DNA of 64,000 nt from a bacterium (GTDB taxonomy: Bacteria; Patescibacteriota; Minisyncoccia; UBA6257; JAGOQP01). How positions within the stretch are numbered: the first letter of the stretch is position 1; each line of letters begins with the position of its first letter. Positions 9,193 to 41,376 of the stretch are shown here, piece by piece. The position numbers and the translations under genes were made by a program. Location of the stretch: positions 6,394 to 70,393 of the forward strand of contig JAKANP010000002.1 of the NCBI GenBank assembly GCA_021812345.1. The letters are read 5' to 3'. The notes below the pieces were generated by a model. It was not told where the DNA came from, searched no databases, and saw only the letters and a list, made by a program, of their open reading frames with translations.

Positions 9193-9208
9193 CTGTTGTT
9201 TTTTATAA

Positions 9209-10222
9209 TTACCATTGAGCATGAATATGCGCTCCCGATTTTCTTTGATTGCCGTTAAAAACCGAACTGCAGTCATCATAAAATGTTCCGCTTATTTCAC
9301 ATTTTGCAAAAGAAGCCCCATTTTGAGTTAATGTCTTAACAAACGAATTCCAAACATTGGGATCATTGGAAGACGTAACAACAATGTCCATCGCTCTGCC
9401 TTGATAATGATATGAATTGGTAGCGTGTTTTCCTCCGGTTAAACTCGTAACCATAAATGGCGTGGGAGTGGGGCTTACACAGCCTGTAGATTGCGGAGCC
9501 AATCCAGTTCCAAGATCTACGGTCCCTTGAGAATAAGGACCGCAAACCAAGCTATCTAAAGTTTCCAGCATATTTATGCTCAAATTAACATTGCCGCTGG
9601 TTCCGCCCCTGGAACAGCTGCAGCTCGGGCTACAAACGAAAGGCATAACGCCATTACTAACATCATTAATAATTGACGAGGCATCGGTGCCGGCCGAACA
9701 ATCGGCGCTTTTTGAAAAAGCTACCTCTCCCGGACTTTTTGACAGAATACTTGAAGCTATTTGAGATAAGGTGCTTCTTTGTTCCTGGGTTCCCCCCGGT
9801 TCTCCCGCTCCGCCACTAGTTGGCATTGCGGGAACAGATTGAGATGTGAAGTTTAAACTCACCAGTTGAGGATTTATGGTATTTAAAACAAGATATGAAC
9901 CGGCTAGCAATAAAAGTCCCCAGATGGCATTGGTTACTCTATCTTTGGCGTCTCCTAAGGCAGATTCATTTCCTCCGCTGGCAAGATATTTTATACCGCC
10001 ATAAATAATCATAATAATCGCCAGAGTGCCGGAAATTCCTATGGCATAGTCGTAAAGTCCGGATATAAAAGATGGGATTGAAGAACTGGAATTTAAAAAT
10101 GCAGGATAATCAACATTCACGGCAGTATTAGCAGATTGTGCGGCAAATATCGGCAATGATGAAACAAATTTCAACCCGAAGACAATTCCAAATAAAATTA
10201 AACTGTTATATTTTTTTCTCAT
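9209..10222 (-). CDS. T4SS pilin-like (VirB2/TrbC-type) domain fused to a LAS-family (peptidase M15/VanY-like) cell-wall peptidase domain
   Basis: N-terminus has a signal peptide, a hydrophobic helix, IYGGIKYLASGGNESALGDAKDRVTNAIWGLLLLAGSYLV (the same motif as the six pilin paralogs at 34-36 kb), then a second helix. The C-terminus has SYHYQGRAMDIV (H-x6-D) and HIHAQW (H-x-H), the zinc ligands of LAS/M15 D,D-peptidases. A Cys-rich linker CSPSCSCS joins the two. Confidence 0.5.
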   Translation of the reverse strand: MRKKYNSLILFGIVFGLKFVSSLPIFAAQSANTAVNVDYPAFLNSSSSIPSFISGLYDYAIGISGTLAIIMIIYGGIKYLASGGNESALGDAKDRVTNAIWGLLLLAGSYLVLNTINPQLVSLNFTSQSVPAMPTSGGAGEPGGTQEQRSTLSQIASSILSKSPGEVAFSKSADCSAGTDASSIINDVSNGVMPFVCSPSCSCSRGGTSGNVNLSINMLETLDSLVCGPYSQGTVDLGTGLAPQSTGCVSPTPTPFMVTSLTGGKHATNSYHYQGRAMDIVVTSSNDPNVWNSFVKTLTQNGASFAKCEISGTFYDDCSSVFNGNQRKSGAHIHAQW

Positions 10223-10223
10223 A

Positions 10224-10949: not shown

Positions 10950-10998
10950 TTGTCCTATTATATCAAATAAAATTAAAAATATAAATGCTTGTAAAAAA

Positions 10999-11547: not shown

Positions 11548-11562
11548 TTTTATAAAGAATCA

Positions 11563-13320
11563 TTAAACCAGACTTTCTTCTTCTCCCAAAAGTTGCTGGG
11601 GTTTAGTAGTAACAATTTTATCTTCAAAATAAGAGGCAACAACTTGAATGGCAACGTGTTTTAACCCCGCGAAAAACAACCCCTGGCCGACACCGGCTTC
11701 AAGCAGTAAATTTTTCTCGGCTTCGGTCAAATTAAACGCTTTAGCAATATTATCTATACTGGTTGGAGATTGTTTTAATAAAAGCTGTAAAGACGAGTTG
11801 GTGACTATCGGTTTTCCATACGGCGAATTCAAAAAGTCATCCACTTCTTGAGTTATAGTTGTAATTCCTAAATAATATTTTCTTCCTCTTTTTGCCAAAG
11901 AAAACAAGAACGAAGCTCCTTCGGGATATTTCATAATCACCCACGCCTCATCAATGACCAAAATTCTTCTTTCCATTTGAGATTTAACGACATTCCAAAT
12001 GAAATTTAAAACAACATACATAGCCACAGGTCTTAATTCTTCCTCTAAATCTCTCATTGAAAAGACAACTAGGCGGTTATTGATATCTATATTGGTTTTT
12101 TGATTAATAAATCCGGCATAGGTCCCTTGAGTATATTTATAAAGACGCTCGGCCATACCTCTTCCTCCTTCCATATTTCTCAAAACTGTTTCAAGGTCGG
12201 ACAATGTCGGTGGCTCAAGATTCAAAAAATTAGGATTACTCGGAACAATATCTCTTGAAGCATAGGTCTCGGTTAGGGCTCTATCCAAAATACCTTCCTC
12301 TTCAACGGTCATATCTCCAAGCATTATTTTTAATAATCCGGTAAGCGTTAAAATGTTTGATTTAAAAACATCGGCCGGGTCTTCTCCTTTGGGAACAATG
12401 GGAATATCAAAAGGATTAACGTGCTGGTCGGAAGTGAGTGAAATTTTAAAATATGTTCCACCGACGGTATCACAAAGATTTTTATATTCATTTTCGGGGT
12501 CAATAACCATCACTTTTGTGCCCATCATCATGGATCTTAGAATTTCAAGCTTGGTGGCGTAAGATTTTCCGGAACCTGATTTTGCAAAAACCACTTGGTG
12601 AGCGTTTTCCAAAGAAAATCTGTCAAAAATTATCAAAGAATTGTTATGCAAATTAATACCGTATAAAATTCCATCCTCGGACGTAAGATCCATGGAAACA
12701 AACGGGAAAAAAGAAGAAATCGGTCCGGAATTCATCGGCGTTCGCACTGCTAATTTATCCTCCCCAATAGGTAGAACCGACTCAAATCCTTCAATTTGTT
12801 GGAAGATGGCCGGTTTTATATAAATAATTTTACTCTCAAAAAGATTGGTGATGACTTCTTCAAGCTCATTTAATTTTTCCAAAGTGTCTCCATAAATGGT
12901 TATATAAACAGCGGAATCAAACAGACGCTCTTGCGCTTGCTGAAGCTTGTCTCGCAAAGCTTCAATATCGGAAAAGGCGGTTTCCAGCATCGGGTCACGG
13001 ACAAAACCTTTCGATTCTTTTTCGGATATTTCGGCTTCGATTTGAGCCGCTTTTTTTCTTAAATTTCTTAGAGCCAAGGCGGTGTCTATCGGATGAGCAA
13101 AAATGGAAATATCAAAAAGTTTTGCCAGATTAATTATCGGAGAAAACCATCCGCTAGAAAGGAATCTTGGGTAAGAAAAAACAAACAACGTCTTGGCAAA
13201 TTTATCGCCTATTTTTATATAATTTTGGTCAACCTCCAAAGCCGCCGGAGAAATTAAATTTTTGACTTCGGATTCTTCCTGCCCCGTGTATGGTTTTATA
13301 ACTTTTATTTCTTCACTCAT
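11563..13320 (-). CDS. virB4: VirB4/TrbE/CagE-family type IV secretion ATPase
   Basis: Walker A FAKSGSGKSYATK and Walker B RILVIDEAWVIM, with conserved VirB4 C-terminal blocks. Start set at MSEEIKVIKP (ATG at 13318-13320), which avoids overlap with the upstream ORF. Confidence 0.8.
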   Translation of the reverse strand: MSEEIKVIKPYTGQEESEVKNLISPAALEVDQNYIKIGDKFAKTLFVFSYPRFLSSGWFSPIINLAKLFDISIFAHPIDTALALRNLRKKAAQIEAEISEKESKGFVRDPMLETAFSDIEALRDKLQQAQERLFDSAVYITIYGDTLEKLNELEEVITNLFESKIIYIKPAIFQQIEGFESVLPIGEDKLAVRTPMNSGPISSFFPFVSMDLTSEDGILYGINLHNNSLIIFDRFSLENAHQVVFAKSGSGKSYATKLEILRSMMMGTKVMVIDPENEYKNLCDTVGGTYFKISLTSDQHVNPFDIPIVPKGEDPADVFKSNILTLTGLLKIMLGDMTVEEEGILDRALTETYASRDIVPSNPNFLNLEPPTLSDLETVLRNMEGGRGMAERLYKYTQGTYAGFINQKTNIDINNRLVVFSMRDLEEELRPVAMYVVLNFIWNVVKSQMERRILVIDEAWVIMKYPEGASFLFSLAKRGRKYYLGITTITQEVDDFLNSPYGKPIVTNSSLQLLLKQSPTSIDNIAKAFNLTEAEKNLLLEAGVGQGLFFAGLKHVAIQVVASYFEDKIVTTKPQQLLGEEESLV

Positions 13321-13333
13321 ATATATATTAAAA

Positions 13334-14020
13334 TTAATTTGCCGGCTGACTTTCTGTCCCGGGCTCTTTGGCCAGCTGTTGTTTGATAGAAGAGGGATTG
13401 TATAAATTATAATAAAGTTCGGTAAGTTCCTGGTCATTTAAAACAACCGCTCTTAAACCGATTCTTTCTATTCCCGATGCGACCTGATCTATCCTCTGCC
13501 TTAATTGAATCAATTGCTGTTCGTATGATTCCTGCTTGTCTTTTTTGCTGTTTTTGGGTTTTCCAAATAATCCGGTAATACTGCTTGTTATTTTTTTGGC
13601 GCCGGCGCTTTCATAAGGAACGACAACAAAAAAAGTTTTGGTCATTATCTCGTTTTCCTTAACAAACCCTTTGATGTATTCAATGTATTCGTCTATTTGA
13701 TTTCTTAGCAACTCGCTCTCTTCCTGCTGTCTTCTTTGGGCCATTTTAGCAAGATAATTGTCTATATTTATTTTTCTGGAATGAATAACTATCTGCACCG
13801 AAAAATCAACGGAATTTAAAAATTCCTGATAATTGGCGGTAATAATGTTTTGCTCCTCTTCGGATTTCAATTCAAAATTTATCCCCGAAACCATAATCAC
13901 CGACCTTAGAGCTCCGCTTTTTAATTTAACAACGCCGTCTTTTATCTCTTCTATATCAACAAATTGCTGAGTTGAATTGGGAGCGATTTGAGTGGTTGTT
14001 TTTTGTTTTTCTTCGGCCAT
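13334..14020 (-). CDS. VirB4 N-terminal-domain-like protein encoded as a separate ORF (possible split VirB4)
   Basis: The sequence ...VKLKSGALRSVIMVSGINFELKSEEEQNIITANYQEFLNSVDFSVQIVIHSRK... resembles the N-terminal substrate/membrane-proximal region that precedes the ATPase domain in full-length VirB4/TraC-type proteins. It ends 13 nt before the ATPase gene, and the ATPase ORF at 586 aa is short for a VirB4. Confidence 0.45.
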   Translation of the reverse strand: MAEEKQKTTTQIAPNSTQQFVDIEEIKDGVVKLKSGALRSVIMVSGINFELKSEEEQNIITANYQEFLNSVDFSVQIVIHSRKINIDNYLAKMAQRRQQEESELLRNQIDEYIEYIKGFVKENEIMTKTFFVVVPYESAGAKKITSSITGLFGKPKNSKKDKQESYEQQLIQLRQRIDQVASGIERIGLRAVVLNDQELTELYYNLYNPSSIKQQLAKEPGTESQPAN

Positions 14021-14068
14021 ATTTTAAATTATACCAAAAATTAAAATTAAAAGATAAAATTCATCAAT

Positions 14069-14605
14069 CTAACGATAATCGATTCTTCGCGCCACTTCTT
14101 TTTCTCCACTCATTCTTCTAAATACCTGATACTGTTCCTTGATTTCCGAGATTGGCTTTTTGGGAACCACCTTTTCTCTTTTGGGAATCGGATTTTTTGT
14201 CGTTGTCATGTCTTGCCACAATTTTGAAATTTGAGAAATTCCGGAAGATGCCAAGTCCAAAGCGCTTCTTTTGGATTCCACCGTTTGTGATTTAACTTGA
14301 GGAATTTCAAAAGTTTCTTTTATTACCGGCCTTTTCCACAAGAACATTTTAGGTTGCCAAAAAAACTTGGCCGCTAAAAACGCAAGCATATAAAGAGGGC
14401 GCCCATTGATTTTGATGAAAGCAAAAGAAATACCGAAAGACATCAAAACTATAAAAATAAGCACCCAAATTGCCGTATTTAAAATAAAAAACAGAAAAAA
14501 AGAAACCAAAGCCGGGGCCGCGATAAAACCAAATTGCTTCAGCGTAAGCGGACCGACTATTTTCGATTCAATATCAATAAATTGCGGAACTTCAAATTGC
14601 GCCAT
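14069..14605 (-). CDS. PrgI/VirB3-like small membrane protein
   Basis: MAQFEVPQFIDIESKIVGPLTLKQFGFIAAPALV followed by two TM helices, the PrgI-family layout. It sits directly upstream of the VirB4 genes, as VirB3/PrgI does in T4SS operons. Confidence 0.5.
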   Translation of the reverse strand: MAQFEVPQFIDIESKIVGPLTLKQFGFIAAPALVSFFLFFILNTAIWVLIFIVLMSFGISFAFIKINGRPLYMLAFLAAKFFWQPKMFLWKRPVIKETFEIPQVKSQTVESKRSALDLASSGISQISKLWQDMTTTKNPIPKREKVVPKKPISEIKEQYQVFRRMSGEKEVARRIDYR

Positions 14606-14675
14606 ATTTTAAATTATACCAAAAAATAACGGGTAAAAGCCAATTTATGCCTTAAAATAACTGGATAAAATAATC

Positions 14676-15926: not shown

Positions 15927-15946
15927 AAAACAATCAAATTAATCTA

Positions 15947-18151
15947 TTATTTTTTTGAACCTCCGGCAGGTGGTGCTGATGGAGCACTACTAGATGAGCT
16001 TTCTCTATATGCATTTCCCGCAGCCATATCCCCCAAAACGCTTTTTTCCACTCTATTTCCTAAACGTTGTCCTACTAAACCAAATTCTCTGAGTTGATCC
16101 TGGAATCCTTTGAGTTCAGTAGAATTTAATTTATCCACCCCACTATCATACGCTTTCTTTAACGATCCGGTTAGTTCAGCCTCCTTTGTCACGGCTTTTA
16201 TTAAAGTCTTCATTAAATATGTTTGCTGATCCGGTTTTACCCCTCTAAGCGCCCCGTAAAATCCATTACCCGATGTTTCGTTGTTTATATAATTGGCGTG
16301 AGCAAGACGGTCATGTTTTTCTGATTCCGAAAGGCTTTTTTCATCAACACCGAACATATTTTGGCTGATAATTCTCTGATTGTCAGAACTATTATATTTA
16401 TTATCAAAGGCGGTCCTAGCATCACTCAACCCTTTTTCGGCACTACTAAAAGGCTCCAATTCCTTTTTATAGTCATCGTCAGAAATTTCTCCTTTCAAAG
16501 CCCTTAATTCCAATTCAGTCCTTTTTTTAATACCATCAGAAGTGTAAATAGAGTCATATTTTTTACGAGCTTCTAAAGTTGATCTATTGTCGCTAGCCGC
16601 AACATAAACTTGATCGGCAGCTTTTTTATTTCCTTCTCTTTCCAATTTTTCTCCGAAAGATACCAAGGACTCTCTCCCGTCTTTATCATTTCCATACCCC
16701 AAACTTTTTATAACACTCGGATCAATTCTGCCTTTTTCAGCAAGAGACTGCATCAATCCCTCTTTATCTTGACCACTGACTGATGACGCTAATTTCTTGA
16801 CATCTTCCGGATTTAGAGCGGCATACATTCTTCTGCGTTCTTCTCTGTACTCCGTCTCTTTTTTGCGAACAGATGTTTCACCTCGAGTTAGCCCCCTTGC
16901 AACTGCGCCAGCCCCAAGAAATCTTCCGACCCTAGTATTGGCGGCCCACTGAGCTCCTTTTTTTACCGGAGTTATCATTGGTCTGCCGACTCTTGCCGCA
17001 CCTCTTGTAGTTTTATTTTTAGCCCATCCTTGAGCCTTACTGGTAGCTTTGTTCGCTTGTTTTAATATAAAACTGCTTCCGGCCATTCCTAAACTTTGAG
17101 AAATTTTAAGACCTCCTATAAGTATCGCTCCGGACATTAAAGTAAGCATTATAGCATCAAATCCGTGGACCCCTCCCGTCTGATCAGGAGAGCCACTTAG
17201 GCCCGTAAAACCAAGGGACGATGAATTGCTCATCATTATCATTGATAATTTTACAAAAAGAAGCATTAGCGGAGCGAAAAATACCCATTTTAAAAAATGA
17301 GTCCACCAATCACGCCAAAATCTGTAAGCAGAAGGAAATATCCACAAAAGCCACGCGCCAGGAGCCAAAATAAGCAAAAACGATATATAAAAATATCTCA
17401 ATAAAAACATAATTGCCATAACCAACAAAACAAAAGAGACGAAAACCGCAACCAATATTTGAATAAAAAGATTTATTACATCTCCTATGTTTTGTATATC
17501 GCCCTGTAAATCTTTTGAAGCCACGTTCATCACGGTAGAATTTGACGTTAATACACTACTTACCTTACTGTTTTCAAGAATCATCATGCTGACCTTGTCG
17601 CTTACTTGCGCGGGGTCGTTTCTATTTGCTATGTTTTGGTTTAATGTGATATCTTGCAAAAAAGAATTTGAAAAAACGTCCGAAACTTTAATAATCGCTC
17701 CACCGATCATCAAACTAAAATTTACAATCAAAGCGGCGACCACCAATTTCCATAAGATTGATTGCGCTTGATAACTTTTTATTCTCAAAATAGTAGCGAT
17801 AGCAATAATGATTATCCCCAGAACAAATCCTAAATTAGCCAAATCCCTAAAAGTAGTCCAGCCTTTATATACAAAACTGTTTTGGTCAAAAATCTGGGTA
17901 GTAATTTTTTGAGTTAAAGTCAAAGAAGCGGCGGTTAAAGTGGCAGCGAGCTTCATTATCCCCGCCACTAGAATGTCTTTTATCGTAAGCATTACTTTCT
18001 GAAAAATATCGGAAATGGCGCTTCCAGCAACACTACCTAGACCAAAGATGGCAGCGTTGGCTTCTTTATAAGAAAAAGAAAACATCAAAAACAACATCAG
18101 GCAAAAAATGATGATCTTGTTGTATTTTTTGAATATTTTATTTCTTTCCAT
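15947..18151 (-). CDS. VirB6/TrbL-like polytopic inner-membrane protein with long hydrophilic C-terminal extension
   Basis: Signal peptide, then at least 6 TM helices over about 350 aa, then a roughly 370-aa charged cytoplasmic tail. This size and topology is typical of TrbL/VirB6 in T4SS loci. Confidence 0.5.
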   Translation of the reverse strand: MERNKIFKKYNKIIIFCLMLFLMFSFSYKEANAAIFGLGSVAGSAISDIFQKVMLTIKDILVAGIMKLAATLTAASLTLTQKITTQIFDQNSFVYKGWTTFRDLANLGFVLGIIIIAIATILRIKSYQAQSILWKLVVAALIVNFSLMIGGAIIKVSDVFSNSFLQDITLNQNIANRNDPAQVSDKVSMMILENSKVSSVLTSNSTVMNVASKDLQGDIQNIGDVINLFIQILVAVFVSFVLLVMAIMFLLRYFYISFLLILAPGAWLLWIFPSAYRFWRDWWTHFLKWVFFAPLMLLFVKLSMIMMSNSSSLGFTGLSGSPDQTGGVHGFDAIMLTLMSGAILIGGLKISQSLGMAGSSFILKQANKATSKAQGWAKNKTTRGAARVGRPMITPVKKGAQWAANTRVGRFLGAGAVARGLTRGETSVRKKETEYREERRRMYAALNPEDVKKLASSVSGQDKEGLMQSLAEKGRIDPSVIKSLGYGNDKDGRESLVSFGEKLEREGNKKAADQVYVAASDNRSTLEARKKYDSIYTSDGIKKRTELELRALKGEISDDDYKKELEPFSSAEKGLSDARTAFDNKYNSSDNQRIISQNMFGVDEKSLSESEKHDRLAHANYINNETSGNGFYGALRGVKPDQQTYLMKTLIKAVTKEAELTGSLKKAYDSGVDKLNSTELKGFQDQLREFGLVGQRLGNRVEKSVLGDMAAGNAYRESSSSSAPSAPPAGGSKK

Positions 18152-18161
18152 ATAATTTTAT

Positions 18162-32730: not shown

Positions 32731-33645
32731 ATGAATGAAGTTGAAAAATATATAAAAGAATATCTTGATTATCTGGAGGTGGAAAAGAATCGCTCGCCTA
32801 AGACGATCGAGAATTATCGACGCTATTTAAATTTTTTTGTTAAAATCTCCGGCGCTAAAAATCTCAAAGATGTCAATTTTGAAAATATTCGCAGATTTCG
32901 CCTCGATTTGGCAAGAAGAGCCGGAGAAGAGAGCGAATTTCTTAAAAAAAATACACAAAGTTATTACGTGATAGCCATAAGAAATTTTTTGAAATATCTG
33001 ATAAAAAATTCCATAAAAACTTCCGTTTCCCCGGAACAAATAGAACTTCCTAAAGTTTCTCAAAGACAGATTGAAATTATGGAATATTCCGACCTGGAAA
33101 GATTTCTAAACAGTCCGTCGGGAGATTCTTTAAGGAGTTTAAGAGATAAAGCGATTTTAGAAACCCTCTTTTCCACCGGGCTTCGTATTTCGGAACTTTG
33201 TTCTTTATCAAGGTATCAGGATTTTGACAGAGGCGAGGTAACCGTTCGAGGCAAGGGAGGAAAATTGAGAGTGGTGTTTTTTTCCGATGATGCAAAAAAG
33301 GCGATAAAAAAATATCTTGATAAAAGAAGCGATGCGGAAGAGGCGCTTTTTGTGAGTTTGAATAAATCAAAAAATCCAAAAGTTATAGGGAAAATAATTC
33401 CTCGCGCCATTCAACGGCTGGTAAGGTATTATGCCAAAAAATCAGGCACATTGGACAAAGTCACGCCTCATCAATTAAGACACCAATTTGCCACCGATCT
33501 TTTGATGAATGGAGCCGATATTCGTTCGGTTCAAGCTCTGCTTGGGCACGCGAACATTGCCACCACTCAAATATACACGCACGTTACCAATAAAGAACTC
33601 AAAGAAATTCATAAAACTTTCCACGGGAAAAGAAGAAGCGATTGA
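32731..33645 (+). CDS. Tyrosine site-specific recombinase (XerC/XerD-like)
   Basis: N-terminal SAM-like core-binding domain (YLDYLEVEKNRSPKTIENYRRYLNFF). The C-terminal catalytic block HQLRHQFATDLLMNGADIRSVQALLGHANIATTQIYTHV has the R..HxxR..Y signature. Confidence 0.8.
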   Translation: MNEVEKYIKEYLDYLEVEKNRSPKTIENYRRYLNFFVKISGAKNLKDVNFENIRRFRLDLARRAGEESEFLKKNTQSYYVIAIRNFLKYLIKNSIKTSVSPEQIELPKVSQRQIEIMEYSDLERFLNSPSGDSLRSLRDKAILETLFSTGLRISELCSLSRYQDFDRGEVTVRGKGGKLRVVFFSDDAKKAIKKYLDKRSDAEEALFVSLNKSKNPKVIGKIIPRAIQRLVRYYAKKSGTLDKVTPHQLRHQFATDLLMNGADIRSVQALLGHANIATTQIYTHVTNKELKEIHKTFHGKRRSD

Positions 33646-33684
33646 TTTTTATTGTTCTAAAAAGTATTATTCATCAGTAATAAA

Positions 33685-33769
33685 GCCGAGGTGGCGAAAT
33701 TGGCTATACGCACTAGCTTTAGGAGCTAGCGCTCGAAAGAGCATGCGGGTTCGACTCCCGCCCTCGGCA
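33685..33769 (+). tRNA. tRNA-Leu (anticodon TAG), type II with long variable arm
   Basis: Acceptor GCCGAGG/CCTCGGC pairs perfectly, a D-arm is present, the anticodon stem-loop CTAGC-TTTAGGA-GCTAG gives anticodon TAG, a long variable arm precedes the T-arm GGGTTCGACTCCCGC, and the discriminator is A. No encoded CCA. Confidence 0.85.
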
Positions 33770-33945
33770 CTGAAATGTTTTGATGAATATTTTGACGAGA
33801 GCAAGCAAATTTATTTGCTTGCGTGGCGGAGTCGAAAGTACGAAGCGATATTCCGACAGCAGTCGGAATCGCGAGGAGCGGCCCGCGAGCCGGCCGAATG
33901 ACTGATGAGGCCGGACTTGTGGGAGACTCCCGCCCTCGGCACAAT

Positions 33946-33976
33946 TAAAAACCCCGCCTTAAAAAGCGGGGTTTTT
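33946..33976. terminator. Bidirectional intrinsic terminator
   Basis: AAAAACCCCGCcttaaaaaGCGGGGTTTTT lies between the tRNA-Leu region (+) and the end of the pilin array (-). Confidence 0.6.
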
Positions 33977-33996
33977 AATAAACAAAATTTATTTTT

Positions 33997-34362
33997 TTAC
34001 TGAGTAAGTCCGGAAGACAATGAGTTTTGAACCAAAGTAACCACTCCATAAGAAAGCAGAGCAACTACTATACCGACGATGGCATAGATTAGTTCTTGTT
34101 TGGCTTTTTTGGTTGTTTCACTATCTCCCTTGCTGGTGATAAAGTGAAAAGCTGCCAAAAGAATAAAAAGAACCGCGACAATAAAGATTATGTAATAGAA
34201 CCATTTAACAACAGTAACTAATATCCCAACCCAACCAGATATAGTTCCCGGACCTGTTACTGGACCCAATACCGGCGGAGTTGTAGGTTGAGCAAAAACA
34301 GATACTCCCACAACAAAGAGCAAAATTACCAATCCAATTGACGCAAATATTTTTTTAACCAT
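33997..34362 (-). CDS. T4SS pilin-like protein (VirB2/TrbC-type), paralog 6 of 6
   Basis: From the internal Met (ATG at 34360-34362) there is a signal peptide MVKKIFASIGLVILLFVVGVSVFA, then a hydrophobic helix, AAFHFITSKGDSETTKKAKQELIYAIVGIVVAL, and a second helix. It shares this pattern with the five upstream paralogs. Confidence 0.6.
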   Translation of the reverse strand: MVKKIFASIGLVILLFVVGVSVFAQPTTPPVLGPVTGPGTISGWVGILVTVVKWFYYIIFIVAVLFILLAAFHFITSKGDSETTKKAKQELIYAIVGIVVALLSYGVVTLVQNSLSSGLTQ

Positions 34363-34433
34363 GATTTTTTTATCGTTTACGACCTTTACTTTTGATATAT
34401 TTAATAATAACACAAGTCCAAAATAACTTCAAA

Positions 34434-34829
34434 TTAATTAGCTCCCCTGCTTTGCAAAAACTGGGTTATTAATAACGAGACACCGGTAGAAATAAGAGCA
34501 ACAACTATGGCAATAACAGCATATTTAAGTTGAGCTTTAGCTTCCGCGGCTTTTTTTTCATTGGCTCCGCCTTGAAGAAAGTTATATGCCGCCAAAAGAA
34601 TAAACAAAACAGCAACTACAAAAAATATAATGTAAATCCATCTAACTATGCTGAGTAAGATATACCAAATCTGTGTCACGCCGGTCACAGGAGAAGCAAT
34701 TTGGCTATTTCCAAAAGGATTAACATATCCTTCGTTCACTACGGCAAAAACTTCAAAAATTCCGGTGGTTAAAAATATGGTTATAAATAAAAAAGGTAAA
34801 ATTTTTAATAATGTTTTTTGTTTAAACAT
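34434..34829 (-). CDS. T4SS pilin-like protein (VirB2/TrbC-type), paralog 5
   Basis: Signal peptide, helix, AAYNFLQGGANEKKAAEAKAQLKYAVIAIVVALIS, then a second helix. Confidence 0.65.
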   Translation of the reverse strand: MFKQKTLLKILPFLFITIFLTTGIFEVFAVVNEGYVNPFGNSQIASPVTGVTQIWYILLSIVRWIYIIFFVVAVLFILLAAYNFLQGGANEKKAAEAKAQLKYAVIAIVVALISTGVSLLITQFLQSRGAN

Positions 34830-34845
34830 AAATTTAAATTATTTT

Positions 34846-35214
34846 TTAATAAACTCCTCCACTGCCGATGAATTGGGAAATAATAGCCGATAAACCGGTA
34901 GCAATTAAGGCGACAACTATGGAAATTCCGGCATATTTAAGTTGGTTTTTGGCAACTTCTATTTTCTTTTCATTGGTTCCTCCTTGGATAAAATTATAAG
35001 CCGCCATCAAAATGAATATTACCGCCACCACAAAAAACGCGCGATAAATCCAAATAACAATACTTTTAACGATGGTAAATATATCGTCTGCGCTATTTAC
35101 CGGGGACGCCGTATCGCCGGTATTAAATGGAGCTATATTAACGCTTGCTCCGTAAGCAAACATCGGAGCCAAGGAATAGATAGCCGCCAAAATTAAAAAA
35201 AACTTCTTTCTCAT
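34846..35214 (-). CDS. T4SS pilin-like protein (VirB2/TrbC-type), paralog 4
   Basis: Signal peptide, helix, AAYNFIQGGTNEKKIEVAKNQLKYAGISIVVALIA, then a second helix. Confidence 0.65.
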   Translation of the reverse strand: MRKKFFLILAAIYSLAPMFAYGASVNIAPFNTGDTASPVNSADDIFTIVKSIVIWIYRAFFVVAVIFILMAAYNFIQGGTNEKKIEVAKNQLKYAGISIVVALIATGLSAIISQFIGSGGVY

Positions 35215-35228
35215 ATTTTTAATATTAA

Positions 35229-35546
35229 TTATTTATTTCCCAAAAACGTATTTATTATCGTGGCAACCCCTGAAGCGGTCAAGGCAATAACCAGAGCGAT
35301 AACTGCATATTTAAGCTGAGCTTTGGCGGTTTCTATTTTTTTAGGATTATCTCCTCCTTGAAGATAGTTAAACGCCGCTAAAAGAATGAATCCGACGACG
35401 ACAATATAGAAAGCTTCATACATATAAGTAACGGCTTTTTGCATAAGAGCGATAATATCATCGGCTGTTTGAATCGCGGCAAACGCCACCAATGGAAACC
35501 CGGAAATAATTGCCGCCGCTATAATTGCTTTTGTTTTGTTTTTCAT
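35229..35546 (-). CDS. T4SS pilin-like protein (VirB2/TrbC-type), paralog 3
   Basis: Start at the internal MKNKTKAIIAAAI, which removes the overlap with the upstream gene. Signal peptide, helix, AAFNYLQGGDNPKKIETAKAQLKYAVIALVIAL. Confidence 0.6.
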   Translation of the reverse strand: MKNKTKAIIAAAIISGFPLVAFAAIQTADDIIALMQKAVTYMYEAFYIVVVGFILLAAFNYLQGGDNPKKIETAKAQLKYAVIALVIALTASGVATIINTFLGNK

Positions 35547-35562
35547 ATTTAAATATTTTAAT

Positions 35563-35907
35563 TTATGCCCCAATAAAATTTTTGACTACCGCCGCTATGC
35601 CCTTTGCCGCAAGAACTACCGCCATTCCAATGATTGTGTAAGTAATTGTTTTTTTGCCTTGGGCAAATTTATTTTCATTTCCGGCGGCGCCAAGCATTTG
35701 AAAAGCTCCGATCAACAGCATTATAACAAAAACAGGCGCGGCAAGCTCAACAATAAAAGTGGCGATTTTATCAATCAAATCCGGTATGGTGTTAACTCCG
35801 GATTGAGCTAACGGATTTTGTAAAGCAACTCCTCCGGTATCAGCGGCGCTCACAACCGTTGGCACCCCTAAAATAACGGCAATCGATGAATAAAGAAATT
35901 TTTTCAT
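35563..35907 (-). CDS. T4SS pilin-like protein (VirB2/TrbC-type), divergent paralog 2
   Basis: Signal peptide MKKFLYSSIAVILGVPTVVSA, a helix, GAFQMLGAAGNENKFAQGKKTITYTIIGMAVVLAA, and a second helix. Same architecture as the others with a more diverged motif. Confidence 0.55.
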   Translation of the reverse strand: MKKFLYSSIAVILGVPTVVSAADTGGVALQNPLAQSGVNTIPDLIDKIATFIVELAAPVFVIMLLIGAFQMLGAAGNENKFAQGKKTITYTIIGMAVVLAAKGIAAVVKNFIGA

Positions 35908-35931
35908 ATTATATTTATTATAAACATTATA

Positions 35932-36312
35932 CTATTGTGTCGGCAAATTTAAAAACTTCAAAATAGTGTTAACTAAAAGCCAAGCGCCGAAAGTCAAAAC
36001 TATGCCGATTGCCGCCGCAGTTATTTTTTTCTTTCCGCTTTTAAATTTTCCCTCATCACCGGCGGAAATTGCCATTTCAATTCCTCCCCAGATAATAACA
36101 ATTACCGCCACCGGCGTGACAACATCAGTTAAAGCAAAGGTAACTAAACCTTGAACCATTTTTACAAAATCGGAATAATTGCAAGGATTTTGTCCGTTTC
36201 CTCCGCAATTTACCAAAGCGGCAAAAGATGATGCGGCGTTTATAAAAAACGCCATCAAAAAGAATAAAATTCCATAACCGTATTTCTCGTATTTTCCTGT
36301 TTTATTCAACAT
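35932..36312 (-). CDS. T4SS pilin-like protein (VirB2/TrbC-type), divergent paralog 1 (first in array)
   Basis: Signal/TM region, a Cys-containing segment NCGGNGQNPCNY, a helix, IWGGIEMAISAGDEGKFKSGKKKITAAAIGIVLTFGAWLLV. Same two-helix pilin layout. Confidence 0.5.
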   Translation of the reverse strand: MLNKTGKYEKYGYGILFFLMAFFINAASSFAALVNCGGNGQNPCNYSDFVKMVQGLVTFALTDVVTPVAVIVIIWGGIEMAISAGDEGKFKSGKKKITAAAIGIVLTFGAWLLVNTILKFLNLPTQ

Positions 36313-36383
36313 TTAATTAATTATATAAAAATTCAAATATCGTTTCAATCCAAAGCCAATCAAACAGACTTGATAACTAAAAT

Positions 36384-37709
36384 TTATTGCCCCAAATTTG
36401 TCGACGGTTGATACAAATTATTTATTGCCGCTTGAGCCGCTTGAACCGATGCCTGAACATTCAATTTGCCGGATAAAATATCGCTTACCATTCCGATAAA
36501 AATAGAATCGATAGACGATGGATTTATTTGAAACCAATCCTTGGCAGTTAAGAATTCTTTTAAGAATACGCCGTTGTCCCCGCCAAGTCCCTGTTGAATC
36601 AGCGAAAGCAAAGCCGGAAGTTTATTCGTCGCCGAAAGATAAGAAGAACTGATCGACGGCGTCATTGTAAGATATCTTATAAAACTCCAAGCAACATAAG
36701 GATTTTGAGTTTGTTTGGAAACTGCCAATCCCCAATAATTTGGCCAATTGGATATTTGCGAAGCATTGGCATTTGATAACTGAGGCAAAGGAGCAACGCC
36801 AAGATTGATATAAGCATTTCTGTTTTTTATATCTTTGATTGCGCTGTAATAATCAAAAATCATCGCGGTCTGACCGGCGGCAAAAGAAGAAACAGAATTA
36901 TCAAAACTTTCATTCCAGGTGTAATAAGGACTTACCGGATCGGAAAATTGAGTATAAAATTGGACCGCTTTATTAAATGGATCGTCTAAAATAACTCCGT
37001 CGTTTGATGGGTTATTAATAGTAGACCCGGACTGCATCGCCAAGACACTCAAAATATCCGGAACATTATTTATATTATGAGCCGAACCCAAAGCGGCGGC
37101 AGAAAGAGATATCTTTTTATTCTGGTCTATTTCCGTTATCTTGGAGACATCGGCAATAAAATCGTCCCAAGTTGCCGGCGGGAAAACAATTCCTTTGGAA
37201 TTAAAAACGTCTTTGTTATAAATAAGAGCCAGCGCGTCCATCGAAAGAGGCGAGGCAAAAATATTTCCGGACAAAACAAAATCTTTTGAAACAACTGCGG
37301 GAAAAGATTGGCTAAAAACTTGAGGTGTGAGCAACAAAGACGGAGCGGGATAAAGTTTGTTCCAATTGCTGTAAACCCAGAGATTATTAACCATAAAAAT
37401 ATCGGGGCCCTGATTTGCGGCAAGCGCGTCGATTAACTTTTGCTGGTAAGCAACCGGGTCGGTAAATTTTGTGTAATTTATTTTTACGTTTTTATAAACG
37501 CCTTGATACGATTTTATGATATCGTTGTAAACGGAATAATCATCGCCCACTCCCCACATTTGTAAAGTAACGCTCCCGGTCGGGAAGTTTGGATCAGAAA
37601 CAGTAGTCTTTTTTATTCCGGGAATTATTCCCATCAAGCCCAAAATAAAAACAATGGCGACTATTGCGATAATCCCAATAACCATCAATTGAGTTTTGTT
37701 GAAGTTCAT
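36384..37709 (-). CDS. ABC transporter extracellular solute-binding protein (family 1, sugar-type), membrane anchored
   Basis: N-terminal TM/signal anchor, then a roughly 400-aa periplasmic-binding-protein-like domain (KINYTKFTDPVAYQQKLIDALAANQGPDIFMVNN...) typical of SBP_bac_1. No permease or ATPase gene is adjacent in the window. Confidence 0.55.
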   Translation of the reverse strand: MNFNKTQLMVIGIIAIVAIVFILGLMGIIPGIKKTTVSDPNFPTGSVTLQMWGVGDDYSVYNDIIKSYQGVYKNVKINYTKFTDPVAYQQKLIDALAANQGPDIFMVNNLWVYSNWNKLYPAPSLLLTPQVFSQSFPAVVSKDFVLSGNIFASPLSMDALALIYNKDVFNSKGIVFPPATWDDFIADVSKITEIDQNKKISLSAAALGSAHNINNVPDILSVLAMQSGSTINNPSNDGVILDDPFNKAVQFYTQFSDPVSPYYTWNESFDNSVSSFAAGQTAMIFDYYSAIKDIKNRNAYINLGVAPLPQLSNANASQISNWPNYWGLAVSKQTQNPYVAWSFIRYLTMTPSISSSYLSATNKLPALLSLIQQGLGGDNGVFLKEFLTAKDWFQINPSSIDSIFIGMVSDILSGKLNVQASVQAAQAAINNLYQPSTNLGQ

Positions 37710-37765
37710 TACTCTAATTATCTGATATTAAAAAAATAAATGCAATGTTTTTAAAAAAATAAACG

Positions 37766-38060
37766 AGTCGTCATTCTGAGCGAAGTCGAAGGAGCTTGTC
37801 CTGAGCGAAGTCGAAGGAGCTTGTCCTGAGCGAAGTCGAAGGAGCTTGTCCTGAGCGAAGTCGAAGGACGGAGGATTTGTAAAATCCCTCCCGCCTTACG
37901 GCGTACTCCCTTTATGAAAGGGAGAATTATTTGTTTTGTTCCTCCTTTTCTAAAGGAGGTGGCGAGCTAGCGAGACAGAGGATTTGTATTCGTAAATCCC
38001 TCGCCCTGACGGGCACTCCCTTTAACAAAGGGAGAATGAACACAACAAAAGAGCCCCGAA
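37766..38060. repeat. Modular GC-rich intergenic repeat locus B (4x tandem 25-bp units plus two hairpin-module copies)
   Basis: CTTGTCCTGAGCGAAGTCGAAGGAG occurs 4x in tandem (37768-37868). It is followed by two variant copies of the GGAGGATTTGTAAAATCCCTCC...TCCCTTTATGAAAGGGAGA module and the AAAGGAGGTGGCGAG module, all shared with loci A and C. Confidence 0.8.
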
Positions 38061-38086
38061 GGGCTCTTTTGCTGTCCGATTATACG
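38060..38086. terminator. Intrinsic terminator downstream of the 1085-aa surface protein gene
   Basis: AAAAGAGCCCcgaaGGGCTCTTTTG is a perfect GC-rich hairpin with A- and T-tracts, about 35 bp after the stop codon at 38119 on the minus strand. Confidence 0.6.
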
Positions 38087-38118
38087 ACATCGGAAAACGA
38101 AATCAACAATCTTACGAC

Positions 38119-41100
38119 TTAGTTAGCTAAGTTTGTAAGAACAGGTCCGGCAACCGGAAGAGTAACGTTGGTCGGCAAGAATGTAAGATCTGATGTCGAT
38201 CCGTCGCTCCAAGTTATTCCCTGAACCGAAATCTGATAAGTGCCATTGTTGTTTGAGGCAGTTAAAGTATTTGCGGCAGAGGTAACTTTAAATTGCAAGA
38301 CTCTATTTGTTGAACCGGAAGGAATGTCCCAACCACTGGTAAATCCAGAAGTTGTAGCTGTTGTAGTAGCTGTTGTACCAGTAAGCGTAATCGTGAAGAT
38401 AGCGGAATTAGGATTGGTTGAATCATACAACGACAAAGCAACAGTTGTTGATGATTGGACCACTGAACCGCTCTGGGAAAGATTAAGTTTAGTGATATAA
38501 ACATCGTTTCCGGTATTCATTGCTCCGGCAGTAAATGACGAAACAATATTTCCAACTCCGGCTCCGATAGAAGTTATCGGGGTTACTGTTCCTCCAGAAA
38601 ATCCTGAGAGCAAAGCTCGGTACAAAGTTATGTTATTTCCTTGAGCTGATACATTGGTTGAAGTCGTGTTAGGACCAGTTGTCAGGTTATAAACATAGCT
38701 TGATGCCTGGAAGGAATGGGTTGAATTTTCAGCGTTATTGAAGCTGTTGTAATTAACCGGGCTACCAACCAAGCTCAAAGTCGCATATTGATTCTGAGCA
38801 ATAGTGATAGGAGCGTTAAAGACAAATGTCGCTGTTCCGCTGGCAGTTAACGACGGCTGAGTATTCAACGTAGTTCCGTTGTAAACCAAGCTAAAGTTGT
38901 TAAATGATTGCGGATATTGAGTGGCAGTGCTTGTAGTAGATGAAGCCGCATCAAGAATCGTCAACTGACTGACAGTGACAGGACCGCTTGATGAACCATT
39001 CAATCTGTAGATAGCCAATGTGTTGTTGGAAGTTCCAAGTCCCATAACAGTTGCCGCTGGGCTGGTGTTGTCAAGAGTAATGCTAGATAAAGCATTTCCT
39101 TGAGAGACATAAACTCCCTGTCCTGAAGCAGTTACGCTGGAAACGGAGTTTCCTCCGGCAGTGGCGTTAACTCCTGCAAGATTTGCCAAGTCAACTGGAG
39201 TTGAAGTTGAAGCCGAGTTTGAAAGAGCGGCAAAAACATCAACAGTTACCGATTGAGTAGCCGGGATAATAACTTGAGAAGAACCACTGAAAGTGTAATT
39301 TCCTCCCGAAGTTATATTTCCTTGAGCAACTCCAAAGGCAGAGCCATTAACATTGACATACAAACTTGAAAGCCATCCTGACGGAACACCTGAAGGAACT
39401 CCGATAGTTACTCCGCTAACAATAGCAGAGTTAACTTGTCCGGCCTGCAAGATGAATGACGCAACTTTAGAAGTTGAACCAGCCATCAAAACCGGCGATC
39501 CAAAAGATCCGTTCTGATAAGCGGTCAAATTAGTCGTATTTGCCAAAACTTGCAAAGTCGGTGAGTCAAAATGATTGCTCAAGCTTCCGACAGATGTGTA
39601 GTTTGATTGAGATTGACCAACCATAGCAACATCAGTTCCGACGTTTGTTCCAGAAGAAACAGTGCCTTGAATGGTTAATGTTTGAGTGGTGTTAGCCGGA
39701 ATTATGTAGTTCAAATTTTGGAATTTAACTACATTAGCCGGTCCACTCGACATGCTCGATTGGGTTGTTCCCAATTGAGTGCCATTAATCAAAACTTGGA
39801 CGTTTGTAGTGCTAGCTGATCCGTTCAGATAGAAATCTAATTCTTGCAATCTGATGTTGTCTCCTGAAGCTAAGACTGTATAACTACCCAAAACTGAATT
39901 TGAGTTGTTTTGAACGATATACAAAGCGGTGGATGAAGCATTGTTAACTACCAATCCTCCCGGCTGAACTGTTACAGAATACATATTCTCTGGGAATGTT
40001 TGTGATCCATAAGCAGTGGAGCCAATTCCGACATTGTACATATTGTCAATCGCTTGGACATCAGATGACTGCTGAACGGTAAATTGGAAATTATATCCAA
40101 CACCGCCAGTAACATCAGCGTAAAGCGACAAAGTAGCCGCCTGACCCGAAGTTAACATCAAAGGAGCGTTTGAAAGGTCAAACAAAGCAATGTTGCCGTT
40201 CAAAGTGGAAAGAGTGGCACCAACCTGAGTTGAGCCATTCATTAATTTGATGTTAGCGATGTCTTGTGTCGGCTCGCTTCCAGTCATAGTAAAGCGCAAG
40301 CTGGTTACTTTAACTGGGTTATTGCCTGCAGTTAATGTAAACTGTCCGACGAGATTATTCGTCTGGCCGGCGTTAACACTGGTGTTGGCAGTAACATTAT
40401 TAAAGGTTAAGGTTGCCAAATTGGTTACATTAACCAATGACAACTGATTTCCGGAAACTGGGAAGTTTCCTCCAACAGTTACATTGCTTGCAGTTACAAC
40501 ATTGGTAGCCGCCGGCAATGAGAAGGTAAGAATATGGCTTGCATTTGAACCATTGTTGTAGATATCAGCTTTAACTGTTATTTCGGTTGTTTGACCGGCG
40601 CTAACAGTAAACAATCCCGTTCCGCTTGAAAATACTATATTTCCATTAGAGATGCTCATGTTGGTAGCAACACGGTTTGCTCCTTGGTAAAGATAGACAT
40701 TTTGTAAGTCGGCATCTTGGGATAATCCAGACCTAACAATAGTCAAAGAATTAACAGTGACTGCTTGCGATCCGGCTGTGAAATTCAAAGCCATAACCGG
40801 GACGGCAACAGCGCCAATAGCGACATTACCTGAAGCCGGGTTGTCCGAAGCCAATGCGACAGAAAGTCCGCTGGTTGTCGGGACAACTGTTCCAGTTCCA
40901 GTTCCTGTTCCGGTTCCTGTTCCAGTTCCGGTTCCAGTTCCTGTTCCGGTTGTTTGCGATGCTATGAATGCTCTGGTTTTAGGTCCAAAGTATCCAGCGG
41001 CGGGCGAAATTGAATTCGCTGCCTGATATTTTGCCAACGCGGCTTTGGTCATCGCGCCAAAGTATCCGGTCGGGGCGGAGATTTTAAGAAATCCGCCATC

Positions 41101-41376
41101 AATCAAAATTTGTTGGAGAGCAGAAACATCAGCTCCTTTGCTGCCGAGGGTGAGGTCCTTGGTGAAGCTGTAGGAAGATGAAGCGCCTCCTTGTGAAGCA
41201 GCCATTTGCGATTTCAAAGCTGTTATTTGAGCGAGCAAGGTCGCGATTTGCGATTGCAAGTCAGTGGTTGTTTGGGCATTAGAGAAGCTAACAGCTCCAA
41301 AAACCATAACAACTGATAACACAACGACTGCTAATTTTTTTGCAGTACTCATTTTAGATTTTACAGAAAAATACAT
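38119..41376 (-). CDS. Large secreted/surface protein with N-terminal peptidoglycan-binding (PG_binding_1-like) domain, (Gly-Thr)12 linker and long S/T/N-rich beta-rich repeats
   Basis: Signal peptide, a coiled segment, then TLGSKGADVSALQQILIDGGFL...GYFGAMTKAALAKYQAANSISPAAGYFGPKTRAFI, which matches the PG-binding domain pattern. This is followed by TGTGTGTGTGTGTGTGTGTGT and about 900 aa of low-complexity T/S/N/G/V-rich sequence. Confidence 0.55.
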   Translation of the reverse strand: MYFSVKSKMSTAKKLAVVVLSVVMVFGAVSFSNAQTTTDLQSQIATLLAQITALKSQMAASQGGASSSYSFTKDLTLGSKGADVSALQQILIDGGFLKISAPTGYFGAMTKAALAKYQAANSISPAAGYFGPKTRAFIASQTTGTGTGTGTGTGTGTGTGTGTVVPTTSGLSVALASDNPASGNVAIGAVAVPVMALNFTAGSQAVTVNSLTIVRSGLSQDADLQNVYLYQGANRVATNMSISNGNIVFSSGTGLFTVSAGQTTEITVKADIYNNGSNASHILTFSLPAATNVVTASNVTVGGNFPVSGNQLSLVNVTNLATLTFNNVTANTSVNAGQTNNLVGQFTLTAGNNPVKVTSLRFTMTGSEPTQDIANIKLMNGSTQVGATLSTLNGNIALFDLSNAPLMLTSGQAATLSLYADVTGGVGYNFQFTVQQSSDVQAIDNMYNVGIGSTAYGSQTFPENMYSVTVQPGGLVVNNASSTALYIVQNNSNSVLGSYTVLASGDNIRLQELDFYLNGSASTTNVQVLINGTQLGTTQSSMSSGPANVVKFQNLNYIIPANTTQTLTIQGTVSSGTNVGTDVAMVGQSQSNYTSVGSLSNHFDSPTLQVLANTTNLTAYQNGSFGSPVLMAGSTSKVASFILQAGQVNSAIVSGVTIGVPSGVPSGWLSSLYVNVNGSAFGVAQGNITSGGNYTFSGSSQVIIPATQSVTVDVFAALSNSASTSTPVDLANLAGVNATAGGNSVSSVTASGQGVYVSQGNALSSITLDNTSPAATVMGLGTSNNTLAIYRLNGSSSGPVTVSQLTILDAASSTTSTATQYPQSFNNFSLVYNGTTLNTQPSLTASGTATFVFNAPITIAQNQYATLSLVGSPVNYNSFNNAENSTHSFQASSYVYNLTTGPNTTSTNVSAQGNNITLYRALLSGFSGGTVTPITSIGAGVGNIVSSFTAGAMNTGNDVYITKLNLSQSGSVVQSSTTVALSLYDSTNPNSAIFTITLTGTTATTTATTSGFTSGWDIPSGSTNRVLQFKVTSAANTLTASNNNGTYQISVQGITWSDGSTSDLTFLPTNVTLPVAGPVLTNLAN

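Follow-up and report, generated by a model that had tools for sequence, protein, structure and literature searches.

Six tandem VirB2-like pilin genes in a Paceibacteria-type patescibacterium: paralogs that look like fixed structural classes

Why does a patescibacterial chromosome carry six different pilin-like genes in a row, and what might their products build? The question is raised by a stretch of 64,000 nucleotides (nt) from GenBank assembly GCA_021812345.1 (Patescibacteriota; contig JAKANP010000002.1, positions 6,394 to 70,393), hereafter the window, in which six consecutive small open reading frames (ORFs) occupy exactly positions 33997-36312 of the minus strand. An earlier sequence-only reading, whose coordinates for the block were exact, had taken them for conjugative pilins of the VirB2/TrbC kind. 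The explanation that we favor for these genes, here labeled A (first transcribed) to F (last), and to which we give a probability of roughly 0.6, is that they encode VirB2-like prepilins which a type IV secretion system (T4SS) polymerizes into a heteromeric filament or conduit with fixed subunit classes. A large share of bacterial diversity falls to the Patescibacteria, which live attached to other microbes; among such systems, only their T4SS with its pilin array has proved essential for growth, namely in Southlakia epibionticum ML1.

Family membership and predicted topology

Profile matches were evaluated against the curated Pfam gathering scores, i.e. 26.6 bits for PF18895 (T4SS_pilin) and 27.9 bits for PF04956 (TrbC/VirB2). 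The hmmscan check against PF18895 that had been proposed together with the pilin interpretation was passed by all six genes, with scores of 33.5-49.9 bits, and also by the N-terminal domain of a seventh gene, ORF 9209-10222. Pilin A (35932..36312, minus strand like the other five; 126 amino acids, aa) scored 38.3 bits and was alone in also passing PF04956 (28.9 bits), and it is the most TrbC-like of the six. Pilin B (35563..35907; 114 aa) scored 49.9 bits with PF18895 and 24.2 bits with PF04956, and the N-terminal domain of ORF 9209-10222 reached 16.9 bits with the latter, so that the expected TrbC/VirB2 match held for A and fell below the cut-off for these two. For pilins C (35229..35546; 105 aa; PF18895 33.5 bits), D (34846..35214; 122 aa; 34.2 bits), E (34434..34829; 131 aa; 38.6 bits) and F (33997..34362; 121 aa; 41 bits), nothing was listed for PF04956 except precomputed 'faint' hits. 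Among relatives of the A and B types, 21 out of 24 match PF04956 at E <= 0.01 (best 3.6e-10), and two match T4SS_CagC. A further model, NF045849, which describes a pilin-like protein of a Mycoplasma integrative and conjugative element (ICE), matched five of the six pilins over nearly the whole of its 80 residues, with 24.7-30.7 bits and E values of 1e-5 to 2e-7 (pilin A 28.9 bits, pilin B no match). These scores lie below the 40-bit cut-off, and judged by them the pilins are relatives of the NF045849 family and not members of it. The same matches hint that VirB2-like proteins are perhaps native to monoderm MPF-FATA systems, and not borrowed from diderms.

Two gene starts differ from those of the mechanical ORFs. 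That of pilin C was placed at ATG 35546 (the mechanical ORF reaches TTG 35573), as supported by a 96%-identical ortholog and public gene calls, and that of pilin F at ATG 34362 (mechanical ORF to GTG 34413), on the basis of orthologs and public gene calls. The revised sizes are 105-131 aa and the revised spacers, from A to F, are 24, 16, 14, 16 and 71 nt. Accordingly, the range of 114-138 aa given before has to be corrected for F (121, not 138 aa) and C (105, not 114 aa), and the spacing of 14-25 bp holds for the first four spacers (14-24 nt) but not for the last. The identities within the array are low. Pilins C, D and E are 48-53% identical among themselves (D to C and E 49-53%), F is 30-40% identical to these three, and A and B share 26-33% with the remaining pilins; to speak of four close paralogs, as had been done, was therefore generous. 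The loop motif described for the whole array, AA(Y/F)N(F/Y)(L/I)QGGxNxKKxxxAKxQLKYA, is exact in C, D and E only and degenerate in F, B and A, while the divergent copy with a Cys pair could be identified as pilin A (C36 and C44, in the exposed N-terminal segment). A hidden Markov model (HMM) built from the paralogs detected no copy in the 64-kb window beyond the six genes and the domain in ORF 9209-10222. The exact sequence of pilin E is present on 12 public contigs.

By Kyte-Doolittle hydropathy every pilin has an N-terminal hydrophobic segment followed by two segments of transmembrane (TM) length. The common layout consists of a basic N-terminus, a signal-like segment, a variable segment of 10-30 residues, and the two TM-length segments with a short Lys-rich loop. 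Candidate cleavage sites, picked by eye and not by a signal-peptide predictor, are AxA-like (SFA/A, VSA/A, AFA/A and FA/Q, where the slash marks the cut). An AlphaFold2 model of pilin F, built with 36 relatives, has helices at residues 3-22, 41-76 and 81-120 (mean pLDDT 75) and is, like the hydropathy profiles, consistent with the signal peptide and two-helix topology suggested earlier. As modeled, then, the proteins have the layout of VirB2-type pilins, namely a predicted signal peptide, two hydrophobic helices and a short basic loop. The inter-helix loops, as read from the alignment, are net positive, which under the positive-inside rule would place the loop in the cytoplasm and the two termini outside. 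An N-out/C-out hairpin is the known membrane topology of VirB2/TraA-type pilins. A Foldseek search of the Protein Data Bank (PDB) with the model of pilin F gave no hit at E <= 0.001, a result that is uninformative on homology either way, since a two-helix hairpin is too generic.

Small size, two TM helices and tandem paralogs are also typical of bacteriocin/immunity or holin loci, and a tRNA-Leu gene and a tyrosine recombinase adjoin the array on its downstream side; the six genes could thus be unrelated small membrane proteins, or even a chance cluster of ORFs. This we regard as extremely improbable. All six pass the curated pilin profile, a PHROG scan for holin and phage families gave no match at E <= 0.01, and the array is vertically conserved, in a stretch of unremarkable GC content, next to a XerC/D-like recombinase that is syntenic and 60-91% identical in 20 loci. 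The array sits between a solute-binding protein (SBP) gene and xerC/D-S15-pnp, and the window as a whole is ordinary chromosome, with genes for e.g. murein ligase, RuvA, Fpg, KsgA, UvrD, PNPase, S15, enolase, PPDK and H+-PPase. A mobile island, as the combination of tRNA-Leu and integrase might suggest, was rejected in view of the conserved synteny of the recombinase and the flat GC content. The bacteriocin- or holin-like family that the sequence-only reading had named as the outcome that would overturn it has, in effect, been refuted by the matches to pilin profiles together with the conserved synteny. At the level of sequence, the array is thereby confirmed as real and not a chance ORF cluster, and its interpretation as conjugative, VirB2/TrbC-like pilins is supported by profiles and topology, although it is not new to the literature.

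Paralog classes and their transcription

An alignment of F-type pilins was used to fetch 79 species-level loci, most of which carry arrays of three to eight pilin genes, and pilin types were defined as reciprocal-best-hit clusters of 393 pilins. Expressed in these types, the array of the window reads e-c-d-d-d-a, i.e. A belongs to type 'e', B to type 'c', C, D and E to type 'd', and F to type 'a'. The named relatives nearest to the pilins are metagenome-assembled genomes (MAGs) of Candidatus Paceibacterota, Wolfebacteria and Paceibacter, which makes the organism a Paceibacteria-type Patescibacterium. Certain MAGs with accessions beginning CAY or CAZ (at L017, L023 and other loci) are titled 'uncultured Candidatus Saccharibacteria bacterium', and their pilin arrays are clearly Paceibacteria-type, with F-type pilins 45-55% identical to that of the window. 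Such names are unreliable for taxonomy, and array types were used in place of the record names for these MAGs.

The order of the types is fixed. In Paceibacteria-type arrays the A-type gene always comes first, the B-type second and the F-type last, and the order e-c-d(n)-a in about 15 Paceibacteria-type species translates into A, then B, then one to four genes of the C/D/E type, then F. Saccharimonadia-type loci have a fixed order of their own, g-f-h-a-a-b, with a lone b' gene on the opposite strand; gene sizes suggest that this pattern equals SEML1_0014-0019 plus SEML1_0024 of ML1. Across species F is the most conserved type, its 35 relatives in Paceibacteria and Wolfebacteria being 46-90% identical with 15 invariant residues. 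The sister species GCA_027353055.1 (loci L007/L011) carries these six genes at the corresponding site, and the 1:1 orthologs are 77-96% identical, compared with 26-53% for paralogs within the genome. Between these two species, dN/dS by the Nei-Gojobori method is 0.04-0.18 for the pilins (0.04 for C) and 0.03-0.07 for the neighboring genes encoding the SBP, S15, NYN and PNPase. Amino-acid changes affect 24% of the positions in the signal peptide, 22% in the N-terminal segment and 9-12% in the hairpin. Within the species, the 3.9-kb array region is identical in four other assemblies and differs by one single-nucleotide polymorphism in a fifth. Exact matches to the pilin protein sequences are present on contig DAIERY010000001.1 of the MAG GCA_027346585.1 and in several further assemblies. 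From such sequence comparisons the paralogs look like fixed structural classes under purifying selection, and not like interchangeable variants.

This bears on a different account of why there are six genes. Antigenic or host-range variation has been proposed for the VirB2 paralogs of Bartonella and Anaplasma. Similar versatility has been suggested for Patescibacteria arrays (PMC12102498), in which case the six pilins would be alternative versions of one subunit, and an antigenically variable pilus was also among the options of the sequence-only reading. The low identity between the paralogs and the high variability of the N-terminal segment, which is likely to be exposed, are in line with this. 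However, the option fits poorly with the 1:1 orthology, the low dN/dS, the near-invariant assemblies and the fixed type order. Furthermore, the T4SS and the predicted pilins SEML1_0014-0019 of S. epibionticum ML1 were found by transposon sequencing to be essential for epibiotic growth (Wang et al. 2023, PMC10633639), with each of the six pilins individually essential, as would not be expected of redundant variants, and SEML1_0024 non-essential. We hold antigenic or host-range variation to be quite improbable here. The fixed type order and the individual essentiality of the ML1 pilins fit fixed structural roles, i.e. major and minor subunits, and a heteropolymer of major plus minor pilins is the best fit among the functional options that had been offered.

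Some pilin domains in the loci of other lineages occur in larger array proteins. An array member at L033:3733-6471 is a fusion of a PF18895 hairpin with PKD and SprB domains, and the protein at L037:2562-5177 combines an HMM-detected pilin domain with PKD and PA14 (Pfam lists PKD and PA14 alone). Two pilin domains per protein are found at L089:6486-8537, L030:6900-7823 and L079:6354-7247.

The limits of the operon are indicated by signals at both ends. A promoter-like site before pilin A (36320..36348, minus strand; TTGAAA-17-TATAAT, 11/12) is, by consensus match alone, the best sigma-70-like site in a scan of 33600-38200. Its -10 box, TATAAT, ends 7 nt 5' of the pilin A ATG, and since the string TATAAT-TAATTAA-ATG (window 36313-36325, minus strand; L007:9590-9604) is kept in the sister species within a spacer that has otherwise diverged, the mRNA of pilin A may be leaderless. 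At the other end, an intrinsic terminator (33947..33971, minus strand; CCCCGC-TTTTTAAG-GCGGGG-TTTTT) starts 26 nt past the stop codon of pilin F, and the sub-threshold Rfam leader and small RNA models all pile onto this hairpin. As delimited by the promoter-like site before A and the terminator after F, the six genes would form one transcription unit.

In addition, the most conserved class, that of F, seems to have a transcript of its own. The spacer of 71 nt between E and F contains a second promoter-like site (34404..34432, minus strand; TTGAAG-17-TATTAT, with TG before the -10 box), and the non-coding leader motif AAAGGTCGT (34379..34387, minus strand) lies 24 nt before the ATG of F. The 8-mer AAAGGTCG precedes the F-type gene at the end of the array in 25 or more species-level loci, in spacers that are otherwise unconserved, at a median distance of 30 nt from the ATG (range 15-64); besides the window, the loci are L012, L013, L017, L019-L023, L025-L032, L039, L042, L049, L052, L055, L057, L066 and L081. 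Approximately 27 out of the 111 occurrences of AAGGTCG in about 2 Mb fall within the roughly 0.27% of the searched sequence that consists of F-gene upstream spacers. A -10-like box, identified by eye and in some cases preceded by TG, starts 19-30 nt upstream of AAAGGTCG in about 14 of 25 loci, so that AAAGGTCG would lie close to the start of an mRNA specific to F. Possible roles of the motif are those of an operator, a processing site or a site bound by a protein. In the Rfam search of 33600-38200 only tRNA-Leu passed and no family matched AAAGGTCG, and a search by eye for a consistent complementary partner, i.e. a hairpin, came up empty. That the motif is a coding part of an N-terminally extended F was rejected, as its distances to the ATG are not divisible by three and the reading frame is interrupted by stops in some species.

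The secretion cluster, the solute-binding protein and a possible filament

A monoderm-type T4SS cluster is located at 7969-20548 of the window, and the genes described here are all on the minus strand. The VirB4-like ATPase (11563..13437) belongs to the CD1110 (monoderm MPF-FATA) family, with 369.6 bits for NF045971 against a cut-off of 325 bits, and has the Pfam domains P-loop_TraG and AAA_10. A TrsD/VirB4 N-terminal-domain protein (13334..14020) has matches to NCBIfam TrsD (38 bits) and to VirB4 N-terminal models, all below cut-off, and a PrgI family (VirB3-like) protein (14069..14605) passes PF12666 with 31.5 bits (cut-off 27 bits). A polytopic membrane protein of 734 aa with about eight hydrophobic segments (15947..18151) has no Pfam or NCBIfam match, and its position and topology make it a VirB6-like candidate. 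The cluster also holds several secreted or anchored proteins whose family was not recognized. One protein of the cluster, of 182 aa (10999-11547, minus strand), has a D/E run over about 70 N-terminal residues and three hydrophobic segments, with no family match. Neither a relaxase nor a coupling protein was seen within the window.

Inside this cluster lies the seventh pilin-domain gene (9209..10222, minus strand; 337 aa), in which a signal peptide and a PF18895 hairpin (residues 1-120; 33.8 bits) are joined by a linker to a C-terminal LAS-type zinc peptidase. The likeness of its N-terminal domain to the pilins, as noticed before, is thus borne out. The C-terminal domain has the invariant zinc-ligand motifs H-x6-D and H-x-H and agrees with a LAS fold (Hedgehog/DD-peptidase, M15-like), and the fusion probably supplies a VirB1-like, cell-wall-cutting activity on a pilin anchor. 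The array had been placed 14 kb from the VirB4 locus; this is about right for the near edge of the cluster (13.4 kb), whereas virB4 itself is 20.6 kb away. With the array at such a distance from virB4, its coupling to the T4SS is deduced from the family to which the pilins belong and from the presence of the seventh pilin domain within the cluster.

Much closer to the array, 71 nt upstream of pilin A, is the gene for an SBP_bac_1/SBP_bac_8 solute-binding protein (36384..37709, minus strand; 441 aa; Pfam SBP_bac_1 93 bits) with an N-terminal TM helix. Its nearest solved relatives are sugar SBPs (4qrz and 1eu8; E ~1e-12), the ligands being maltose, trehalose or oligosaccharides. Adjacency was counted over the 57 loci in which each flank of the array is covered by 1.5 kb or more. 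In 34 of these, from divergent Patescibacteria, a co-oriented gene for an SBP homolog abuts the array at a distance of -14 to +137 nt, upstream in 28 loci and downstream in 6, and start/stop overlaps of 4 nt occur in several. Most array-adjacent SBPs are 25-60% identical to that of the window, and ten out of ten distant ones pass Pfam SBP_bac_1. The side of the SBP switches in loci that also have VirB4 nearby. The low identity and the switching side speak for a functional coupling and against a mere remnant of synteny, and the SBP is probably a functional partner of the array, as receptor, adhesin or substrate-capture component. Saccharimonadia-type arrays have no such adjacency, and we found no paper that mentions a link between SBPs and pilin arrays. 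An ABC permease as the partner of the SBP was found neither near the gene in the window nor in the neighborhood check of other loci, where 34 of 43 have no permease-like ORF within 4 kb and the few multi-TM hits are mostly pilin fusion proteins. Just upstream of the SBP gene, a 1085-aa protein (38119-41376, minus strand) combines an N-terminal hydrophobic, signal-like segment with PG_binding_1, and its gene is followed by a terminator-like hairpin with a 15-bp stem (38042-38075). Elsewhere in the window, a 1937-aa protein (43844-49657, plus strand) has a staphylococcal-nuclease domain and three lamin-tail domains, and is possibly a nuclease for nucleotide scavenging.

So close an association could also mean that SBP and hairpin proteins form a surface apparatus of their own for carbohydrate capture, adhesion or uptake, independent of the T4SS. 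Besides the abutting and overlapping genes and the missing permease, the e-c-d-a loci, in which no VirB4 is found within 8 kb of the array, speak for such a module. On the other hand, a T4SS cluster that looks complete, with a pilin-domain gene in it, is retained in this genome, and array, SBP and VirB4 are all adjacent in other lineages (L058, L070 and L079). To our knowledge, there is no self-assembly ATPase for two-helix hairpins other than VirB4. We consider a T4SS-independent apparatus distinctly unlikely.

In the mechanism that we favor, each pilin would be exported by Sec and its signal peptide removed, leaving a mature pilin of 80-100 residues as a hairpin in the cytoplasmic membrane, its termini outside and its Lys-rich loop in the cytoplasm. 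The T4SS 13-26 kb away (VirB4, TrsD, PrgI/VirB3 and the VirB6-like protein) would then extract the subunits and polymerize them into an extracellular filament or conduit that would serve the interaction with a host cell. The variable segment that follows the signal peptide and precedes helix 1 would be surface-exposed. The candidate for the major subunit is F, being the most conserved, always last and equipped with its own promoter-like site and leader, and minor or initiating roles may fall to A, B and the C/D/E group. The orphan sugar-type SBP next to the array would probably take part as receptor, adhesin or substrate-capture component, and the pilin-peptidase fusion would probably cut the wall.

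The pilins may, however, be membrane-resident parts of the T4SS, such as a hetero-oligomeric ring, a channel or a short stalk, without any long filament. Monoderm MPF-FATA systems are generally without pili (PMC12102498, PMC10633639), five of the six pilins resemble NF045849 from a wall-less monoderm, Mycoplasma, the structure-based annotation of the ML1 pilins returned generic hairpin folds such as ATP synthase subunit c, and no filament has been reported (PMC12857230). Set against this are the family's matches to the TrbC/VirB2 and CagC pilin profiles and the fusion of relatives' pilin domains to adhesin-type domains (PKD, PA14 and SprB) and wall hydrolases, for which display at the surface fits better. 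A purely membrane-resident structure thus seems possible but unlikely.

Several points weigh against the heteromeric filament or conduit. PF18895 filaments have been observed in no organism, and a review treats a pilus made of such proteins as an 'intriguing possibility' (PMC12857230). Profile searches of the PDB, with the paralog alignment as well as with the A/B-type alignment, returned no solved conjugative pilin at E <= 10; with nothing usable from either fold or PDB sequence comparison, homology to VirB2 rests on the profile-to-sequence matches. The distance between VirB4 and the e-c-d-a arrays, given above, is a point of the same kind. The division into major and minor subunits is drawn from conservation and promoter-like sequences and would have to be read as provisional. 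The five further assemblies of the species may stem from related samples, so that their invariance is weak evidence, and some of the SBP adjacency could be inherited synteny and not function.

More tentatively, the unit of the sampled Paceibacteria-type lineages could be defined as an orphan SBP plus four ancient, ordered pilin classes that build a heteromeric T4SS filament, with F as the separately transcribed major subunit under the control of the leader element AAAGGTCG, and the SBP serving as a host-glycan receptor or as the capture step of uptake from host to epibiont. We regard this full combination as doubtful. If it were true, the T4SS would work as an organelle for the import of nutrients or signals and not as an exporter. 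The comparison narrows the hypotheses, by way of the seemingly fixed classes, the tie to the SBP in the Paceibacteria-type lineages sampled, and the apparently separate F transcript with its leader motif, all of which bear on whether the role of the T4SS is adhesion, export or uptake.

The array among known systems

Compared with classical TrbC/VirB2 pilins, e.g. RP4 TrbC, Agrobacterium VirB2 and R388 TrwL, the proteins are alike in signal peptide, two helices and basic loop, and a VirB4 is present in the genome. The classical diderm systems mostly have one pilin gene, whereas six or seven are found here. Furthermore, the bacterium is a monoderm whose VirB4 is of the MPF-FATA type and which lacks an outer-membrane core complex, and there is no sequence match to any solved classical pilin. 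The Mycoplasma ICE with the Mbov_0395 family (NF045849) is also a monoderm system; in addition to the sub-threshold pilin matches, the VirB4 of the window matches its VirB4 model NF045975 with 305 bits. That element is mobile, transfers DNA and has a single pilin-like gene, while the present system is chromosomal and has multiple paralogs. Ancient, divergent paralogs in a fixed order and with 1:1 conservation are also known from type II secretion pseudopili and type IV pili (GspG-K; PilA plus minor pilins). Their fold and machinery are unrelated (a single N-terminal helix, a prepilin peptidase and PilB/GspE ATPases), and the likeness is one of analogy and not of homology. The Pam pili, a pilus of the candidate phyla radiation described in a 2026 preprint, were set aside as an unrelated Ig-fold donor-strand system; T4SS pilins are not mentioned there.

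The closest counterparts are the pilin arrays already described in Patescibacteria. A search of 3,035 Patescibacteria genomes with PF04956 and PF18895 found 383 assemblies to carry, in total, 441 VirB2 arrays of 2-11 genes, whose within-array identity averages 25% (Quinonero-Coronel et al. 2025, PMC12102498). That study defined an array as at least two tandem PF04956/PF18895 genes, or such genes with one non-pilin gene between them, in a genome with VirB4, and the present locus, with a VirB4-containing T4SS on the same contig, falls within this definition. The catalogued arrays, including that of ML1 and the 'Sec secreted array' of TM7x, share with it PF18895 with or without PF04956, tandem co-oriented genes of about 100-150 aa in 2-11 copies (six in ML1 and here) and high divergence within the array. 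Common to these systems are also a chromosomal monoderm T4SS with VirB4, TrsD, PrgI/VirB3 and a VirB6-like protein, no relaxase seen nearby, and KsgA beside the T4SS cluster. The differences concern position, composition and neighbors: the ML1 array is inside the T4SS cluster and the present one 13-20 kb away; the paralog types are e-c-d-d-d-a here and, in Saccharimonadia-type loci, g-f-h-a-a-b with a lone seventh gene; and the former type is linked to an SBP but not the latter. The array is thus an additional, Paceibacteria-type case of a kind known from Patescibacteria (PMC12102498, PMC10633639, PMC12857230).

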